Origin: Vulcanimicrobiota bacterium
Lineage (GTDB): Bacteria; Vulcanimicrobiota; Xenobia; Xenobiales; JADMJV01
DNA: 64,000 nt
NCBI GenBank assembly: GCA_050250895.1
Contig: JBFWNU010000003.1
Location: forward strand, 224,001 to 288,000
Reading direction: 5' to 3'
Notes under the pieces: model-generated
Told to the model about the DNA's origin: nothing
What the model saw: only the letters and a program-made list of their open reading frames with translations
The model's database searches: none
Position numbers and translations under genes: made by a program
In this document: one piece after another, positions 4,084 through 56,663 of the stretch
How positions within the stretch are numbered: the stretch's first letter is position 1
Layout: every line of letters begins with the position of its first letter

Positions 4084-6955
4084 TAGGCCGACTTCGGCGC
4101 GAGCCGCCAAGCTTAGACTGACTTCCAGGCTGGAAGTACTCGCTCGCCGCGGCGGACCGAAGGCTCAGCAGGTGTCGCCCAGCGCCGCGAGGGCTGGCAA
4201 AGCAGGCTGCAGTCGGCCGATGCCTCCGTTGCGTGCCGAGACTCCAGGCGGCGCCCCGCTTGGACTGACTTCCAGCTGGAAGTAGCCGCTCGCTCGCCGC
4301 GGCGGACCGAGGCTCGGCAGGTGTCGCCCAACGCCGTGAGGCTGTCTGGCAGAGCAGGCTGCATCCCGACTTCGGCGCGAGCCGCCAAGCTTAGACTGAC
4401 TTCCAGCTGGAAGTAGCCGTCGCCGCCGGCGGACCGAGGCTCAGCAGGTGTCGCCCAGCGCCGTGCGGGCTGGCAAAGCAGGCTGCATCCCGACTTCGGC
4501 GCGAGCCGCCAAGCTTAGATTGACTTCCAGCTGGAAGTACTCGCTCGCCGCGGCGGACCGAGGCTCGGCAGGTGTCGCCCAGCGCCGTGAGGGCTGGCAA
4601 AGCTGGCTGCAGTCGGCCGATGCTTCCGTCGCGAGCCGCCAGCCGCTCGCCGCCGCGGCGGACCGAGGCTCGGCAGGTGTCGCCCAACGCCGTGAGGCTG
4701 TCTCGCAAAGCTGGCTGCAGTCGGCCGATGCCTCCGTTGCGTGCCGAGACTCCAGGCGGCGCCAAGCTTAGATTGACTTCCAGCTGGAAGTAGCCGCTCG
4801 CCGCCGGCGGACCAGGGCTCGGCAGGTGTCGCCCCGCGCCGTGACGGATGGCATCTCGACTTCGGCGCGAGCCGCCAAGCTTAGACTGACTTCCAGCTGG
4901 AAGTAGCCGCTCGCTCGCCGCGGCGGACCGAGGCTCGGCAGGTGTCGCCCAACGCCGTGAGGCTGTCTGGCAGAGCAGGCTGCATCCCGACTTCGGCGCG
5001 AGCCGCCAGCTTAGACTGATTTCCAGCTGGAAGTACTCGCTCGCCGCGGCAGACCAAGGCTCAGCAGGTGTCGCTCTGCGCCGTGCGGGCTGGCAGAGCA
5101 GTTCTGCATCCCGACTTCGGCGCGAGCCGCCAAGCTTAGATTGACTTCCAGCTGGAAGTAGCCGCTCGCCGCTGGCGGACCAGGGCTCAGCAGGTGTCGC
5201 TCAGCGCCGTCTGTCTGGCAAAGCTGGCTGCAGTCGGCCGATGCTTCCGTCGCGAGCCGCCAAGCTTAGACTGACTTCCAGCTGGAAGTAGCCGCTCGCC
5301 GCCGCGGCGGACCAGGGCTCAGCAGGTGTCGCCCAGCGCCGTGAGGGCTGGCAAAGCTGGTTGCAGTCGGCCGATGCTTCCGTCGCGAGCCGCCAGCCGC
5401 TCGCCGCCGCGGCGGACCGAGGCTCGGCAGGTGTCGCCCAACGCCGTGAGGCTGTCTCGCAAAGCTGGCTGCAGTCGGCCGATGCCTCCGTTGCGTGCCG
5501 AGACTCCAGGCGGCGCCAAGCTTAGATTGACTTCCAGCTGGAAGTAGCCGCTCGCCGCCGGCGGACCAGGGCTCGGCAGGTGTCGCCCCGCGCCGTGACG
5601 GATGGCATCTCGACTTCGGCGCGAGCCGCCAAGCTTAGATTGACTTCCAGCTGGAAGTACTCGCTCGCCGCGGCGGACCGAGGCTCGGCAGGTGTCGCCC
5701 AACGCCGTGAGGGCTGGCAAAGCTGGCTGCAGTCGGCCGATGCTTCCGTCGCGAGCCGCGAGATGCCAAGCCCCGCCCGCTTAGACTGACTTCCAGCTGG
5801 AAGTAGCCGCTCGCCGCCGGCGGACCAGGGCTCAGCAGGTGTCGCCCAGCGCCGTGAGGGCTGGCATCCCGACTTCGGCGCGAGCCGCCAAGCTTAGACT
5901 GACTTCCAGGCTGGAAGTACTCGCTCGCCGCGGCGGACCGAAGGCTCAGCAGGTGTCGCCCAGCGCCGCGAGGGCTGGCAAAGCAGGCTGCAGTCGGCCG
6001 ATGCCTCCGTTGCGTGCCGAGACTCCAGGCGGCGCCCCGCTTGGACTGACTTCCAGCTGGAAGTAGCCGCTCGCTCGCCGCGGCGGACCGAGGCTCGGCA
6101 GGTGTCGCCCAACGCCGTGAGGCTGTCTGGCAGAGCAGGCTGCATCCCGACTTCGGCGCGAGCCGCCAAGCTTAGACTGACTTCCAGCTGGAAGTAGCCG
6201 TCGCCGCCGGCGGACCGAGGCTCAGCAGGTGTCGCCCAGCGCCGTGCGGGCTGGCAAAGCAGGCTGCAGTCGGCCGATGCCTCCGTTGCGTGCCGCGAGA
6301 TGCCAAGCCCCGCCCGCTTAGATTGACTTCCAGCTGGAAATACTCGCTCGCCGCGGCGGTCCGAGGCTCAGCAGGTGTCGCCCAGCGCCGTGCGGGCTGG
6401 CAAAGCTGGCTGCAGTCGGCCGATGCTTCCGTCGCGAGCCGCGAAATGCCAAGCCCCGCCCGCTTAGACTGACTTCCAGCTGGAAGTAGCCGCTCGCCGC
6501 CGGCGGACCAGCGCTCGGCAGGTGTCGCCCAGCGCCGTGAGGGCTGGCAGAGCAGGCTGCATCCCGACTTCGGCGCGAGCCGCCAAGCTTAGACTGACTT
6601 CCAGCTGGAAGTAGCCGTCGCCGCCGGCGGACCGAGGCTCAGCAGGTGTCGCCCAGCGCCGTGCGGGCTGGCAAAGCAGGCTGCATCCCGACTTCGGCGC
6701 GAGCCGCCAAGCTTAGATTGACTTCCAGCTGGAAGTACTCGCTCGCCGCGGCGGACCGAGGCTCGGCAGGTGTCGCCCAGCGCCGTGAGGGCTGGCAAAG
6801 CTGGCTGCAGTCGGCCGATGCTTCCGTCGCGAGCCGCCAGCCGCTCGCCGCCGCGGCGGACCGAGGCTCGGCAGGTGTCGCCCAACGCCGTGAGGCTGTC
6901 TGGCAAAGCAGGCTGCAGTCGGCCGATGCTTCCGTTGCGGGCCGCGAGATGCCGG
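4084..6955. repeat. modular tandem repeat array, ~110-150 bp units with palindrome ACTTCCAGCTGGAAGT
   Basis: About 22 units share GCAGGTGTCGC...CGCCG. 19 carry TAGAYTGACTTCCAGCTGGAAGTA or a near-identical variant (near 4120, 4268, 4399, 4523, 4776, 4889, 5019, 5144, 5274, 5530, 5643, 5789, 5902, 6049, 6180, 6326, 6472, 6597, 6721). No unique spacers. Confidence 0.95.
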
Positions 6956-7164
6956 TTCAAATGTTTTGGTATCCTAACATTTGCAAGGTGGAGGCGTTGA
7001 CTTCGAAGACCCGCCTGCCTGAACCAGGGCCCCCGGTCCTCAATAAGCGCTCTCTGGCATCCCCGCGCCAAATAGACTTGGAGAGTCATTTTCTACCCGA
7101 AACCCCTCCTCGTAGCCGTCTGTGAGTTGCGCCTCAAAGCCTGTAACCAAGCTGTTTTTCTGCG

Positions 7165-7193
7165 TTGATCCGGGTGGTCTTCTTGAGTAAAAT
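7165..7193 (+). promoter_or_regulatory. putative sigma70 promoter of the HNH gene
   Basis: TTGATC-17 nt-TAAAAT; GGAGGT RBS at 7223-7228. Confidence 0.55.
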
Positions 7194-7232
7194 AGGATCA
7201 TCCCTTGATTCTTCTTCTACTCGGAGGTCGGC

Positions 7233-8444
7233 ATGTCTTCAACTTTATCGGCACTTTCCCAGTCATTGCAACAACTTACTCACCAGGAACTACACCAGAG
7301 AAACTGCCAGACCAGCAAACGCTCCTTTGGCTGCGAATGGGACCTGGCCGCTCACCTGTTGGCCACCGAACGCAACGGGCTCTATCGACACATGGGCAGC
7401 GGCAGTGTGGTCGGCTACGCTGTGACCCACCTGAAGTTGCATCCTCAAAAGGCCGGCGAACTTCTGAGTTTAGCCAGGGTCTTCGAGCAACTCCCATTGA
7501 TCTCGGAAGCCTTTCGCGAGGGGAAGCTCTGCTGGAGCAAGGCCCGTGCTCTTAAGCGGATCACCACCCCCGAGAACGAGGCCGAGATGCTCGAGTTTGC
7601 CTTGAACAACAAGGCCCAGGCAGTCGAGCGCGCCGTGGCTCTGACTCCCACCCAGCATAAGCGTGGCCAGGCTTTGAAAGCGTCGCTCGAGGCTCGCCAG
7701 AGTCAGCCCGAACTCACCCAGGTCGAGCAACCCACAAAATCCGAGTCGGTGGCTTTACCGACCCCGGTTCCCGCGGTGCCCAAGTTGAGACAGGTCGTCT
7801 TGCTGATGACCCCCGAGCAGTATGCCGTCTACGAGCAAGCAAAGAGAATGGTCGAGGCCCGCCAGGGTAAGCGCGTCAGTAGAGAGACGGCGGTGACCGA
7901 GATGAGCAGGGCTTTACTCGGGTCGGCAGACAACCGCAGCAAAGTGCGACATCAGGTCATCGTGCACGTGAACGGTGAGACGGGCGAAGGCTTCTATGAT
8001 ACCGACCGGGGACTGTTGCCGGCCGAGGCCGAGGCCGTTGACGAGGCAATGAAGCAAACCGGCATCGTGGTGGCTTGTTCCCACAACACACTTCCAGCTG
8101 GAAGTAGCCGGTCGAAACTTCCGGCTGAAACTAGCCAGGCCGAACAGCTACCGCTACTGCCGAGTCAGCCCAAGGCCAGACCGGGTCTGCCGGTGGGGTT
8201 GGTGCGAGCGGTTTACGCCCGCGCTTTCGGTTGCTGTGAGCGATGCTCGTGCAGAGGCGGGAATTTGGTGATACACCACGTTCGTGCCTGGTCCGAAACC
8301 AGGCGACATCGGCTGGAAGACTTAGAGCTGCTATGTCCAAGTTGTCACGCCAGCGAGCACGAAGAAGACTTTGCGACTCGCACCGAGTGGAAAGCCGCCC
8401 GAGACGCCTCCGTTCGCCAACGCACCAGGTCACGCTCGCGGTGA
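7233..8444 (+). CDS. DUF222/13E12-like domain plus C-terminal HNH endonuclease
   Basis: LPLISEAFREGKLCWSKARALKRITTPENE resembles the DUF222 core; C-terminal CERC...IHHV...LEDLELLCPSCH zinc-binding HNH. Confidence 0.85.
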   Translation: MSSTLSALSQSLQQLTHQELHQRNCQTSKRSFGCEWDLAAHLLATERNGLYRHMGSGSVVGYAVTHLKLHPQKAGELLSLARVFEQLPLISEAFREGKLCWSKARALKRITTPENEAEMLEFALNNKAQAVERAVALTPTQHKRGQALKASLEARQSQPELTQVEQPTKSESVALPTPVPAVPKLRQVVLLMTPEQYAVYEQAKRMVEARQGKRVSRETAVTEMSRALLGSADNRSKVRHQVIVHVNGETGEGFYDTDRGLLPAEAEAVDEAMKQTGIVVACSHNTLPAGSSRSKLPAETSQAEQLPLLPSQPKARPGLPVGLVRAVYARAFGCCERCSCRGGNLVIHHVRAWSETRRHRLEDLELLCPSCHASEHEEDFATRTEWKAARDASVRQRTRSRSR

Positions 8445-8481
8445 GCGAAGGACCTCGCACCGGCGCTTCGAAATCAGCAGG

Positions 8482-8898
8482 ATGCGACTTCAGGGGATAC
8501 TGCTGATAGTGCTTGTGGCTGTGGGTTGCATGGGGAAGTCGCCGCCTCAGTTCTCGCACCAGCAGGTACGCGAGAATCTGGTAACGCGGATAGCCCAGGT
8601 AAAGGGCCTGATGGACGAGACCCCCGCGCTTGAGGCGCGCTTAGAGGCTCTGAAGAAAGAGGTTCCAGCCGAGCGCCGACCGACCCCCGAGCAAGTCCAG
8701 GCTCAGGAGCCGGACGACTACGAGCGCCGCTTTGGCCTGGGATATCCCTACGAACTCGACTGGCATCTCTATTCGCCCGCAGAGCAGAAAGAGCTAAGGC
8801 AGCTGCAAACCGACCTCGACCGACTGGGTCAGGAGTCCGAGCGCTTTTTCCAACTCGAGGCCGAACTCAAAGTGTGGGAGCAGGCGAAGCAGCCGTGA
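8482..8898 (+). CDS. putative coiled-coil lipoprotein
   Basis: MRLQGILLIVLVAVGC lipobox-like signal, then coiled coil. Confidence 0.6.
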   Translation: MRLQGILLIVLVAVGCMGKSPPQFSHQQVRENLVTRIAQVKGLMDETPALEARLEALKKEVPAERRPTPEQVQAQEPDDYERRFGLGYPYELDWHLYSPAEQKELRQLQTDLDRLGQESERFFQLEAELKVWEQAKQP

Positions 8899-14252: not shown

Positions 14253-20579
<6,327 letters not shown>

Positions 20580-38506: not shown

Positions 38507-38534
38507 AAGACCCCCGCTTCGGCGGGGGTTTTTT
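38507..38534 (+). terminator. Rho-independent terminator
   Basis: ACCCCCGC-TTCG-GCGGGGGT followed by TTTTT. Confidence 0.9.
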
Positions 38535-38605
38535 CATTTGGCCTGGGTTGGTGTGGCGGGTTTCGACTGGCGGCGACGGCGCGGCGCGTGGTCGTAGCAC
38601 AGGTC

Positions 38606-40380
38606 GGTGTGGCTCGCCAGTGGGGCGCCCGAAAAATAAACCGCGGAGATCAGGAGGGCACGGAGAGGGTTGTGGGGGCGTGGGGTGAGCGTCCTGGCGA
38701 AATTATGGGTTGGGGTTTTGCCCCATCGAACGGGGTGCTCAAAACGGCGGTGGCTCGGTGGCTGCGGATCCCGGCGCACGACCCTCGACCGGCCGGGGCA
38801 ACCCGCGGCTCGGGCAGGGCGGGTGAAGCCCGGCCGGGCTTCCTTGCGGAAGTGGCCGGGCGGGGGTGCCGAATCGCCGCCAGGGCTAGCCACGACTTCC
38901 ACGTGGAAGTGTGCCCGGGGCTGGCGGATGCGGCCGCAGCCGGACTTCCGTCCGGAAGTGGCCTGGCTTGATTCGCTCGCGGCGGGGGCGGCTGGTGTGG
39001 CTCGCCAGTGGGGCGTCCGAAAAATAAACCGCGGAGATCAGGAGGGCCCGGAGAGGGTTGTGGGGGGCGTGGGGTGAGCGTCCTGGCGAAATTGTGGGTT
39101 GGGGTTTTGCCCCATCGAACGGGGTGCTCAAAACGGCGGTGGCTCGGTGGCTGCGGATCCCGGCGCACGACCCTCGACCGGCCGGGGCAACCCGCGGCTC
39201 GGGCAGGGCGGGTGAAGCCCGGCCGGGCTTCTTTGCGGAAGTGGCCGGGCGGGGGTGCCGAATCGCCGCCAGGGCTAGCCACGACTTCCACGTGGAAGTG
39301 TGCCCGGGGCTGGCGGATGCAGCCCGGCCGGACTTCCGTCCGGAAGTGGCTGGGCGGGTTGGCCCGCTTGGCCGCCCGGGTCGGCCGCGACTTCCAGGTG
39401 GAAGTGATGCCTTCGGGCAGGGCGGATGCAGCCCGGCCGGACAGTGGCCTGGCCGATTCGCTCGCGGCGGGGGCGGCTGGTGTGTCTCGCCAGTTGGGTG
39501 CCTGAGAAATCAACCGCGGAGATCAGGAGGGCCCGGAGAGGGGTTGTGGGGGGCGTGGGGTGAGCGTCCTGGCGAAATTATGGGTTAGGGTTTTGCCGCA
39601 TCGAACGGGGTGCTCAAAACGGCGGTGGCTCGGTGGCTGCGGATCCCGGCGCACGACCCTCGACCGGCCGGGGCAACCCGCGGCTCGGGCAGGGCGGGTG
39701 AAGCCCGGCCGGGCTTCCTTGCGGAAGTGGCCGGGCGGGGGTGCCGAATCGCCGCCAGGGCTAGCCACGACTTCCACGTGGAAGTGTGCCCGGGGCTGGC
39801 GGATGCAGCCGCAGCCGGACTTCCTTGCGGAAGTGGCCTGGCGAATCGCTCGCGGCGGGGACGGCCTGGGGCGGCGAGTTGGCTGGCCGCCGCGGGTTTT
39901 GGCTGGCCAGGCGGGCTGCGGTGTGGCCTGGGCCGAACGCTTGCTCGCTAGCAGCCGGCGGTTGTGCGCCGCACAATCAGCTCTGGGCAGTGTGCGGCGC
40001 AAGTGTGCGCCGTACAACGCGATTTGGCTGGTGTGCGGCGCACGATCCTCGACCGGCGCCGGGAAACCCGCGGCTCGGGCAGGGCGGGTGCAGCCCGGCC
40101 GGACTTCCGTCCGGAAGTGGCCGGGCGCTTCGCTCGCGGCGGGGCGGCTGGGCGCGGCGGCTTTGGCCGGCTTGGCCGCCAGGGTCGGCCGCGATTTCCA
40201 CGTGGAAGTGTGCCCTGGGGTTGGCGGGTGCAGCCCGGCCGGACTTCCGTTCGGAAGTGGCCTGGCGACTCGCTCGCGGCGGGGGCGGCTGGGCGCGGCG
40301 AGTAGGCTCGCCGCCGCGGTTTGGCTGGCTTGGCGCCCGGGTCAGCCGCGACTTCCACGTGGAAGTAATGCCTTCGGGCC
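38606..40380. repeat. intergenic composite repeat array with ACTTCC-N4-GGAAGT dyads
   Basis: Three near-identical long blocks starting near 38607, 38995 and 39480, then degenerate sub-blocks; 14 dyads with cores ACGT, GTCC, TTGC, AGGT, GTTC. Confidence 0.92.
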
Positions 40381-40416
40381 TGGCAGCCGCAGCCAGACTC
40401 CCCATGCGCAAGCGGC

Positions 40417-40827
40417 CTATTCGTCGAGCCAGCCTTCACCAGCGAGCAGGGTTCGGCAGGCCTCACAGAATTCGTGAGCGCGCGAAAAGATGTCCTTGAT
40501 GTCGTTCTCGGCGTAGATCGTCGAGGCATCATCGTCGGCTGCTTCTCGTTCGCCCTGGAGCTGGGTCAAAGCCCGGGGCGCTGAGCTGGGTAGTCTGCCA
40601 GGTCGGACGAAATGCAGGTTGAGAAGGGTGGCGATTCCAGTATGGGTTCGAGCCTCGAGACCTTCGGTCAAAAGAACGGCCCGAGCCGAATGAACCATGG
40701 CGTAGTAGGCCCGCGAGACCGCGTCGGCGTTGAGGCCTGCCTGGCGCAGATTGGCAGCCGCCAGCCAGCTTTCTTGCCCGCGCTTGAGTTCGAGTTTCAG
40801 GTTGCGGCGTCGATTGTCTTCGGTCAT
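40417..40827 (-). CDS. HEPN domain protein (MNT-HEPN module)
   Basis: AVSRAYYAM, ARTHTG, ...REAADD. Confidence 0.85.
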   Translation of the reverse strand: MTEDNRRRNLKLELKRGQESWLAAANLRQAGLNADAVSRAYYAMVHSARAVLLTEGLEARTHTGIATLLNLHFVRPGRLPSSAPRALTQLQGEREAADDDASTIYAENDIKDIFSRAHEFCEACRTLLAGEGWLDE

Positions 40828-41132
40828 ACCTGAATGCCTTCTTCCAGAATGTCTCGGGCCAGCCGGCGCTCGTGGTCGAGTAGGCCCTGGAAATGAGACT
40901 CGCTCATGACGTGGGGGCTTGGGGCATATGGCAGCGAAAGCTCGTCAGCCACATCCCAGGCCAGCCCCATCAGCTCCATTCTCAGGGCTCGGTCCTCCTC
41001 TCGTTGCATTACGAACAGGTCAAGGTCCGAGTCGAGCTGGGCGTCACCCCGCGCCCGCGAGCCGAAGATGCGAACTTGCTGAACAGCCTCACCGTATAAC
41101 TCTCTAGCCCGCTCACGGTAGCGTGCGTGCAT
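40824..41132 (-). CDS. minimal nucleotidyltransferase (MNT) antitoxin
   Basis: IFGSRARGD..DSDLDL; C-terminal EEGI; 4-bp overlap with HEPN; start uncertain, possibly frameshifted. Confidence 0.85.
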   Translation of the reverse strand: MHARYRERARELYGEAVQQVRIFGSRARGDAQLDSDLDLFVMQREEDRALRMELMGLAWDVADELSLPYAPSPHVMSESHFQGLLDHERRLARDILEEGIQV

Positions 41133-41319
41133 AGTCCAGGTCAAGCTGGGTGGGCATGGAGAAAGCTTCAGGACCAACAACAGCTCTCCCTGTCGGGCAA
41201 ATTATGGGGAAACCGTAACAATGTGTTCATCTGGTGTCAATATTTAGGGGCCGGGGTCGAAACTTGTCGCGCCAACCGGGATCTAGAATGGTCGAAACAG
41301 ACACCCTCAGGAGGCCCCA

Positions 41320-56354: not shown

Positions 56355-56663
56355 CGTCGCTCCCTTCGGCGCTTCGCGCCGCGCCGCTGGGCCGACTTTA
56401 GATGAGCGTCGGCCCGGGCGCGGCTTGACGGGATCGACGAGAACGCAAGATCAGAGGGCGGGGCTGGAGTGGGAGGCGACGTTCTCGTCGCTCCCTTCGG
56501 CGCTTCGCGCCGCGCCGCTGGGCCGACTTTAGATGAGCGTCGGCCCGGGCGCGGCTTGACGGGATCGACGAGAACGCAAGATCAGAGGGCGGGGCTGGAG
56601 TGGGAGGCGACGTTCTCGTCGCTCCCTTCGGCGCTTCGCGCCGCGCCGCTGGGCCGACTTTAG
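56355..56663. repeat. 131-bp direct tandem repeat (~2.4 copies) with internal hairpins
   Basis: CGTCGCTCCCTTCGGCGCTTCGCGCC... starts at 56355, 56486 and 56617. Confidence 0.9.

Follow-up and report, generated by a model that had tools for sequence, protein, structure and literature searches.

A 16-nt palindrome within a Vulcanimicrobiota DUF222-HNH gene and in the tandem array beside it: a candidate recognition site of a 13E12-type element

The stretch of DNA analysed here, referred to as the window throughout, comprises 64,000 nucleotides of a Vulcanimicrobiota bacterium (assembly GCA_050250895.1, contig JBFWNU010000003.1, positions 224,001 to 288,000, forward strand). It carries a gene for a 403-residue DUF222-HNH protein, and upstream of this gene lies a non-coding tandem array of short palindromes, a copy of which is also present within the coding sequence. 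The palindromic site is designated P. The features needed in the following are listed with their window coordinates:

4084..6950, + strand: non-coding tandem palindrome array with 19 palindromes, in mosaic units of 113-147 nt and three double units of about 254 nt.
6951..7232, + strand: leader between array and gene, with consensus matches to a sigma-70-like promoter (7165-7193) and, where the array ends, a terminator-like hairpin (6939-6958).
7233..8444, + strand: DUF222-HNH gene (403 aa) with a helical N-terminal domain (residues 1-156), a middle domain, a linker (276-316) and the HNH domain (335-377).
8090..8105, no strand assigned: intragenic palindrome copy P, a perfect 16-nt ACTTCCAG-CTGGAAGT, read on the + strand as the codons CTT CCA GCT GGA AGT.
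8106..8114, + strand: non-palindromic 3' flank, AGCCG-G-TCG in the gene and AGCCG-C-TCG in the array, which sets the orientation.
8117..8136, + strand: second, degenerate copy, ACTTCCGGCTGAAACTAGCC, which encodes LPAETS and belongs to a tandem duplication with a 27-nt unit.
38800..40370, + strand (38560-40400 in a wider delimitation): second non-coding array of 12-13 hairpins with the stem (G)ACTTCC...GGAAGT, in units of about 390-480 nt with two or three hairpins each.

Positions 8090-8110 read ACTTCCAGCTGGAAGTAGCCG and lie within the DUF222-HNH gene (7233-8444, + strand). When the 16-nt core was searched for with up to two mismatches, 23 copies were found in the window, 0.00 being expected from 100 shuffles. 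Seventeen of them are located in the upstream array (4268-6736), one in the gene and five in the second array; two more array copies with a 1-nt insertion at the centre bring the upstream total to 19. The 21-mer of the gene is common to 12 of these 19 copies, the remaining seven reading GTACTCG after the core, and the identity between gene and array extends to 24 of 25 nt (8090-8114). The palindrome match of gene and array is far beyond chance, and the flank AGCCG common to the gene and the 12 copies points to copying at the DNA level. With a profile of the 19 array units, a single match was obtained in the gene, at 8090-8115 (E 2.3e-4, model positions 38-63); the rest of the array unit of about 124 nt is therefore absent from the gene. 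In a k-mer comparison of 6950-8500 with the rest of the window, no further common stretch of at least 16 nt was found. The frame of the gene (ACA CTT CCA GCT GGA AGT AGC CGG TCG AAA CTT CCG GCT GAA ACT AGC) translates into TLPAGSSRSKLPAETS and includes the degenerate copy, which arises from the tandem duplication at 8090-8144 (2.0 copies, 82% matches). The earlier note on this DNA had described the 21-nt match at 8090-8110 to the array core and its 3' flank, had placed it in frame in the linker before the HNH domain and had judged a chance match very unlikely, so that gene and array would be directly linked; all of this was borne out, both by the searches above and by the structure model, codon use and peptide retention given below. 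The degenerate copy that it had reported is likewise present and encodes linker peptide, with its end at 8136 instead of 8133. A further word, TTGACTTCGAAGACCC at 6997-7012 (225 nt 5' of the ATG), resembles a collapsed palindrome without the central CAGCTG; TTGACTTC is common to this site and the left flank of the array, and the site is either a decayed twentieth copy or a chance resemblance.

The codons used by P were compared with a reference of 13,887 codons from 23 window genes. The palindrome form of the window, CTTCCAGCTGGAAGT, encodes LPAGS (residues 287-291), and its five codons are all minor within their synonymous families (CTT 5.2%, CCA 6.9%, GCT 13.6%, GGA 14.5%, AGT 8.6%), with a joint probability of 6e-6 given the peptide. 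In 15 aligned close homologues LPAGS was conserved in 72 of 75 alignment cells, the mean for the preceding five residues being 0.52. With four partial proteins included, there are 19 close homologues, which come from several assemblies, and 16 of them have the exact peptide; the three exceptions (LPAGR, LSAGS and LPAGT) are each one base away from the palindrome codons. Since LPAGS is retained amid variable neighbours, it is not a recent one-off insertion. The 9-residue insert with the degenerate copy is present in four of the 15 aligned homologues and in the partial protein P0025. To judge from the sequence comparisons, the intragenic copy is probably held at the DNA level, beyond the peptide alone.

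The HNH domain (Pfam PF01844) was assigned to residues 335-377 with 34.6 bits (cut-off 21.4, E 2.1e-8) and was matched in 19 of 20 aligned sequences; a profile search of the Protein Data Bank (PDB) matched McrA and IscB in their HNH portions. DUF222 (PF02720) was matched at residues 23-154 with 21-22 bits, just below its cut-off of 24.4. This domain was matched in 13 of 20 aligned relatives at E values up to 10 (best 1.7e-6), and it is present in 21% of the members of the nearest ESM Atlas cluster. By BLASTP the window protein was aligned over residues 88-380 (27% identity, E 1e-13) with the open reading frame (ORF) of L010, one of the distant loci introduced below, whose product passes both cut-offs (DUF222 84.9 bits, HNH 34.1 bits). 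Judged by these alignments, the window protein is homologous over most of its length to bona fide DUF222-HNH members. The middle Asn of the L010 H-N-H motif (DNLILLC) corresponds to an Asp in the window clade (EDLELLC; 8320-8345, residues 363-370). Assignment to IscB/HEARO was rejected: the NCBIfam IscB model gave 26.9 bits (cut-off 175) over the HNH part only, and no Rfam match was obtained. In the AlphaFold2 model calculated with the homologue alignment, the N-terminal domain (1-156) has a predicted local distance difference test score (pLDDT) of about 90 and the linker (276-316) one below 50, LPAGS lying inside this predicted disordered linker.

Database searches yielded 27 relatives of the window protein, the close ones (73-85% identity) being proteins of Vulcanimicrobiota (Eremiobacterota) metagenome-assembled genomes (MAGs). 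Several of the relatives are located on contigs of equal length (for example P0002/P0003, P0012/P0013/P0017 and P0001/P0020), from which it is probable that a genome holds two or three paralogues. The partial protein P0025 (90% identical, from another Eremiobacterota MAG) has kept the linker with LPAGSSRPRLPAET; its HNH domain is deleted, and it passes straight from the linker into a homologue of the downstream lipoprotein ORF of the window (8482-8898). This fusion shows the locus to be syntenic in two genomes, with one copy decayed. In P0015, from a contig of 1,367 nt, the first third of a close homologue is replaced by an N-terminal ribosome-recycling-factor segment (PF01765); either the assembly is chimeric here or the gene has been rearranged.

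For comparison at the DNA level, 49 distant DUF222-HNH loci were taken from genome contigs (23-57% identity over the best segment; none from Vulcanimicrobiota). Eighteen of these are Gemmatimonadota loci, several per MAG, with the perfect palindrome ACGTTCCCGCGGGAACGT in the gene, where it encodes VPAGT of the motif VPAGTSRRL. NTLPAGSSRS of the window protein was aligned by BLASTP with SHVPAGTSRR of L010, so that the codons of the VPAGT palindrome correspond to the LPAGS position; in L010 the motif falls within the stretch matched by Pfam DUF222 (residues 38-332). The five palindrome codons showed zero synonymous change in the 18 genes (nucleotide identity 0.63-0.99, median 0.76). Equally low change was found in only five of 276 five-codon windows, and the equally conserved neighbours S, R, R and L had a synonymous variation of 0.11-0.50. 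Each of the 18 loci has the same palindrome once more, 148-224 nt 5' of the start codon, where the column conservation is 0.99, against 0.37 upstream and 0.41 in the leader. The flank TC[C/G]CG is common to the upstream and intragenic copies at three of the 18 loci. Between the window and Gemmatimonadota sites the core TTCC..GGAA is common and the differences fall at mirrored pairs; these include the third positions of the Pro and Ala codons (CCA/GCT vs CCC/GCG), where the symmetry is kept and the protein is unaffected. Locus L020 has CGTTTCCG-CGGAAACG at both its upstream and its intragenic site, the peptide becoming VSAET, and L028 from the same genome has the standard CGTTCCCG-CGGGAACG at both; in L014 the L020 variant stands upstream and a half-changed copy inside the gene.

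In copies from the same genome, the similarity runs from the upstream palindrome to the stop codon: L011 and L016 are 99% identical from 9657/9656 to 11090/11089, and L010 and L036 are alike from 9536/9520. A third palindrome copy 3' of the stop codon was found at seven of the distant loci, namely L015, L021, L026, L031 and L032 (pattern scan), L016 (one mismatch) and L044 (Modestobacter). Solo copies are present in ordinary intergenic gaps (L018:754 and L022:19649), neither of them beside SOS genes, and decayed DUF222-HNH copies are represented by P0025, L022 and L025. An SOS (LexA) box was considered for the upstream palindrome and set aside on account of these solo copies, of the two variants in one genome and of the differences between palindromes within the phylum. 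As a separate observation, L010, L036, L037 and L022 have a second conserved leader block with repeated GTTGAGAC-like words about 100 nt after the upstream palindrome, which may serve as a promoter or as an additional binding motif. The earlier note had suggested looking in homologues for a palindrome at the same linker position, matched to the adjacent array, and testing the conservation of synonymous sites. Synonymous conservation was found in the 18 Gemmatimonadota genes. A palindrome at the aligned position with a matching outside copy was found at the same 18 loci, the other distant lineages placing the palindrome elsewhere or lacking it. The one-off insertion that it had named as the opposing outcome was not found, in that the peptide is kept in the close clade and the aligned Gemmatimonadota codons are palindromic with an outside copy, the DNA part of this comparison being that of the distant loci.

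Repeated palindromes were scored at the distant loci by a strict rule (arms of at least 8 nt, loop of up to 6 nt, two or more copies within 1.7 kb of the match; 156 kb scanned). By this rule, a perfect palindrome specific to the lineage recurs at least twice, next to the gene or within it, at 21 of the 49 loci; the outer flanks (657 kb) gave only four such families, all on very G+C-rich arms (G or C at 7 or 8 of the 8 arm bases). Looser rules (arms of at least 7 nt, one mismatch) added nine loci, giving 30 of 49. Locus L007 was left unscored because of a masked N run (1669-1770) inside the homologous ORF. The Granulosicoccus loci have AAACTCCGCGGAGTTT or TTACTCCGCGGAGTAA about 150-170 nt 5' of the start and a second copy further up, with no intragenic copy. 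At two of them, L002 (8471-9637) and L038 (2486-3335), the two 16-nt copies bracket a foreign gene just 5' of the DUF222-HNH gene, namely an ORF for an IS30-like transposase in L002 and a frameshifted GIY-YIG-like gene in L038. Two Myxococcota loci have TCGTACCCACGTGGGTACGA twice at the 3' end, and L006 and L049 have TTTCCCGCGGGAAA upstream and again near the C-terminus, where it encodes FPAGN. L046, which like L006 and L049 was added by the looser rules, is an independent case of an upstream array plus an intragenic copy: GACCCACGTGGGTC is located at codon 241 of the gene, and upstream of it three units of about 310 nt stand in tandem, all of them containing GACCCACGTGGGGC. The upstream copies of the relatives are located 34-224 nt before the start codon.

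The HNH protein of L046 (9848-11062) ends in a RuvA C-terminal domain (PF07499, 25.8 bits, cut-off 24), and no DUF222 match was obtained for it at 1e-3; the RuvA C-terminal module contacts RuvB. On a complete plasmid of Rhodococcus erythropolis, a perfect 16-nt CGTCCCCGCGGGGACG was found 109 nt 5' of an annotated DUF222-type HNH gene, with no second copy in 7.2 kb. When a plasmid collection was searched, the L010 protein matched two records, the window protein matched only two HNH domains on Bradyrhizobium plasmids, and the array DNA gave no match.

The N-terminal domain of the window protein was also modelled alone with the alignment (pLDDT 86.7, predicted template modelling score 0.76). In a Foldseek search with this domain model, the eleven best listed PDB matches were all ParB, Spo0J or Noc chains, and the full-length model agreed. 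For the best ten ParB/Noc matches the target-normalised template modelling (TM) score reached 0.74, the root-mean-square deviation was 2.3-5.2 Å (2.3-4.1 Å for the best nine) and the probability 0.92-1.00. No ParB N-terminal domain (CTP-binding, ParB/Srx-type) was found in the window protein at Pfam E values up to 0.1, or in the 20 relatives at E values up to 10, and no ParA partner was detected in the Pfam scan of the window ORFs. According to PMC7383237, ParB and Noc bind 16-bp palindromes, the consensus parS being TGTTTCAC-GTGAAACA and the consensus Noc-binding site (NBS) TATTTCCC-GGGAAATA. Two further sources place the Bacillus subtilis site parS-359 within the parB gene (PMC4442127) and describe sopC of plasmid F as a set of 12 directly repeated units, in each of which SopB binds an inverted repeat of 16 bp (PMC3177203). 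The present system resembles ParB and Noc in its modelled N-terminal fold and in the format of a perfect 16-bp palindrome, here ACTTCCAG-CTGGAAGT; it resembles B. subtilis parS in having the site inside the protein's own gene, and sopC in the tandem site-bearing repeats that adjoin the gene. It differs from ParB and Noc in its C-terminal HNH nuclease, in the multi-copy genes bounded by the site and in the lack of sequence similarity. The likeness to ParB-parS, Noc-NBS and SopB-sopC is one of possible working mode and not of family membership.

Three other known systems were compared. With the 13E12 repeat family (REP13E12) of Mycobacterium tuberculosis and other Actinomycetota, the element shares the combination of DUF222 and HNH, with DUF222 just below the Pfam cut-off in the window protein and above it in aligned relatives, as well as the probable presence of several copies per genome and the occurrence of decayed copies; the Vulcanimicrobiota clade is set apart by a shortened region between motif and HNH domain and by the 19-copy array. 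The 13E12 (DUF222) genes of M. tuberculosis are described as SOS-induced hot spots of gene conversion and inversion breakpoints without a defined function (PMC13061034, PMC13157036, PMC10589994). In a literature search, with most subscription journals outside its reach, no paper was found that links DUF222/13E12 genes to cognate palindromes. Repetitive extragenic palindromic (REP) elements and bacterial interspersed mosaic elements (BIMEs) offer a second comparison. They are associated with REP-associated tyrosine (RAYT, Y1) transposases, and a BIME consists of alternating inverted REPs. The likeness lies in short palindromes of conserved stem that are clustered in non-coding arrays, in solo intergenic copies and in a nuclease-type gene flanked by the site. 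Unlike in REP/RAYT systems, the enzyme is DUF222-HNH and not a Y1 HUH transposase, one site is coding and under synonymous constraint, and the array consists of direct repeats with a unit length of about 124 nt. Among the 36 window ORFs, no gene for a Y1 (RAYT-type, IS200/IS605-like) or other transposase was found by Pfam. A REP confined to extragenic DNA was excluded by the coding copy at 8090-8105, intragenic copies being present in relatives too. Free-standing HNH homing endonuclease genes, finally, are similar in being multi-copy selfish HNH genes with a long specific site and sharp ends of similarity. Homing endonucleases usually have no intact target in their own locus; here, intact site copies are kept at the edge of and inside the gene, and no pair of empty and filled alleles was seen.

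The upstream array begins directly behind the stop codon of the preceding ORF, and 283 nt separate its end from the ATG of the gene. Its G+C content is flat over codon positions in every frame, genuine window genes having a G+C content of 0.78 at third positions, and coding DNA was ruled out on this basis. No homologue was found for its + strand ORF (6646-7122); a 269-residue read-through of the - strand matched one 62-residue protein at 93% identity, maybe the window's own, and one unrelated repeat protein. For both arrays, Rfam gave nothing at gathering scores and only chance-level matches at E values up to 1. A structured RNA was rejected for the array unit, which folds no better than shuffles (z 0.22 and 0.69). 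A CRISPR array was rejected as well, because the stretches between the palindromes are themselves repeated, as mosaic modules; no cas domains were found among the 36 window ORFs. The second array follows a strong terminator-like hairpin (38508-38545) and extends to a HEPN/nucleotidyltransferase pair (40417-41180, - strand); it is situated between a TPR gene and this pair, 31 kb from the DUF222-HNH gene. Its loops read ACGT, GTCC, TTGC, AGGT and GTTC, and its flanks are unrelated to those of the first array. All 30 CTTCC-N2-8-GGAAG hairpins of the window are located in the two non-coding arrays and the DUF222-HNH gene. No other DUF222 or HNH fragment was found in the 64-kb window, and none beside the second array. 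Two further repeats of the window were recorded: a 131-nt unit (2.4 copies, 100% identity, 56355-56663) between a SWIM-domain gene and a SpoIIE-type phosphatase gene, and a 276-nt coding repeat (14687-17666, 10.8 copies, 82% matches), which corresponds to 11 HAMP domains of a 2,108-residue sensor kinase.

The reading preferred here, which is given an even chance of being correct, is that P (8090-8105) is the intragenic copy of the cis-acting recognition site of a 13E12-type DUF222-HNH element. P would be a 16-bp symmetric site with the core TTCC..GGAA, read by a dimer of the element's own protein through the helix-turn-helix of its predicted ParB/Noc-like N-terminal domain, and the HNH domain would be positioned to nick or cut near it. 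Copies of P outside the gene would mark the 5' edge of the element; the outer P would have been amplified into the 19-copy tandem array in the window genome, and the intragenic P would be kept by selection on the DNA. Self-repression of expression could result, as could breaks at P that lead to gene conversion and spread among copies, or both, and another possible outcome of binding would be entry into new P sites. It is from the ParB/Noc-like fold, taken together with the precedents of 16-bp palindromes, that P is read as the protein's own binding site. An element-encoded reader is favoured over a host factor such as LexA by the coexistence of two variants in a single genome, with upstream and intragenic site agreeing in each element, and by the differences between the sites of elements within a phylum. 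Binding of P by its own protein, cleavage, regulation and mobility are what we infer from these comparisons, and the element is best read as a site-specific selfish nuclease with a cognate site, probably ParB-parS-like in its reading part. Among the roles suggested in the earlier note, those of a self-recognition site and of an end of a transposing or mobile unit both gain support as candidates, from the paralogue similarity that starts exactly at the upstream palindrome and from the modelled ParB/Noc-like fold. No support was obtained for the suggestion that P was the seed from which the array grew: only 25 nt are common to both, and a second array with the same stem lies 31 kb away without such a gene.

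Several findings weigh against this reading. The second array has the same stem without a DUF222-HNH gene nearby, and its non-symmetric loops fit a hairpin as well as they fit spaced half-sites. Nineteen of the 49 distant loci show no repeated palindrome even under the loose rules, and for four of the ORFs scored under these rules Pfam gave no match at 1e-3. Among the distant loci, only the Gemmatimonadota lineage has its intragenic copy at the LPAGS-equivalent codons; the copy is at other codons in L006, L049, L044, L046 and L005, and L002, L038 and the Rhodococcus plasmid gene have none. The strongest DNA evidence thus comes from 18 related, non-independent loci of one distant lineage. Relatives at about 45% identity do not have the LPAGS motif, and the homologues of the window clade were compared as proteins, the palindrome DNA comparison covering the distant loci. 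The Foldseek E values of the ParB/Noc matches are weak (0.2-0.8 overall, 0.3-0.8 for the best ten of the domain model), and profile searches with the protein and 20 relatives gave no ParB match at the sequence level. The AGCCG flank is unneeded for protein binding, and DNA copying alone could keep array and gene alike. HNH nucleases are not recombinases, and mobility is suggested here by sequence relationships.

Some of these points recur in the rival explanations. If P were a REP-like hairpin of the host, on which a host factor or a transposase from another locus acts, a stray copy would have landed in a tolerant linker and the adjacency of the array would be incidental. The confinement of the 30 hairpins to two non-coding arrays and one gene would be accounted for, as would the second array without a DUF222-HNH gene beside it, the solo Gemmatimonadota copies in ordinary intergenic gaps (L018:754, L022:19649) and the constant stem with variable loops. 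A stray copy is hard to reconcile with the retention of LPAGS in 16 of 19 close homologues, which speaks against a one-off insertion, or with the different perfect palindrome that the homologous codons form in another phylum at zero synonymous change. The variants of L020 and L028, matched within each element of one genome, argue against a single host factor, and the 64 kb of the window contain no gene for a Y1 or other transposase; this explanation is regarded as quite improbable. Constraint on RNA, by which an mRNA hairpin or pairing with the leader copy would control translation, processing or decay of the message for a potentially toxic nuclease, is considered unlikely. The mRNA at 8050-8170 does fold well (-47.4 kcal/mol, z -3.75, 0 of 200 shuffles as good), the tandem copies pairing as an 11-bp stem. 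This fold is partly a trivial outcome of the duplicated palindrome, however, and the duplication is absent from 11 of 15 aligned close homologues. The non-symmetric loops of the second array are those expected of hairpins, and the upstream copies of the relatives (34-224 nt before the start) could be situated in the leader; the boundary-marking, post-stop and solo copies are left unexplained by a role in mRNA, the whole array unit folds no better than shuffles and no Rfam family was matched.

Conservation of the peptide is the remaining rival and is held to be very unlikely. It would make xPAGx/xSAEx part of an old DUF222 motif (VPAGTSRRL) whose codons CCN GCN GGN are prone to form palindromes, the outside copies being functionless leftovers of gene fragments or products of conversion. 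The position of the motif within the DUF222 match of bona fide members (L010, residues 38-332) is in its favour, as are the non-palindromic flank that the gene shares with 12 of 19 array copies and the flank TC[C/G]CG common to both sites at three of 18 Gemmatimonadota loci, which indicate DNA copying; moreover, PMC13061034 reports the 13E12 genes of M. tuberculosis as gene-conversion hot spots. It leaves unexplained the five minor codons, the zero synonymous change beside equally conserved but freely varying neighbours, the paired symmetric changes at third positions, the palindromes of lineages without an intragenic copy (L002, L038, the Rhodococcus plasmid) and the sharp island of conservation at the upstream site, and the array unit holds only 25 nt of the gene.

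The preferred reading of P as a recognition site could be extended. It is possible, though rather doubtful, that DUF222-HNH (13E12-type) genes encode the enzymes of a class of elements not described so far, which are bounded by palindromes and are mobile or form cassettes, and in which a ParB-like reader and an HNH cutter would break P. Copies of P would then be points of entry and exchange. The gene itself would be bracketed by P, foreign genes bracketed by P could stand beside it (IS30-like in L002, GIY-YIG-like in L038), and short non-coding units would pile up as arrays (window, L046). If this were true, break-induced gene conversion could act on every copy through its intragenic P, which would explain the conversion and inversion hot spots at 13E12 genes in mycobacteria.

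DUF222-HNH genes are widespread and multi-copy, and the 13E12 loci are described as among the most recombined of M. tuberculosis. Breaks at an intragenic site would fit these hot spots. Given a defined cis-site that is symmetric, lineage-specific, matched between the interior and the edge of the element and kept from synonymous drift, what is now an anonymous family of repeats could be studied as a system of protein and site. P would serve as a concrete substrate on which binding and cleavage can be studied; it would allow the extent of the elements to be marked out in genomes and might account for their recombination behaviour, and it would be a clear example of a protein-coding stretch with codons dictated by a DNA signal.

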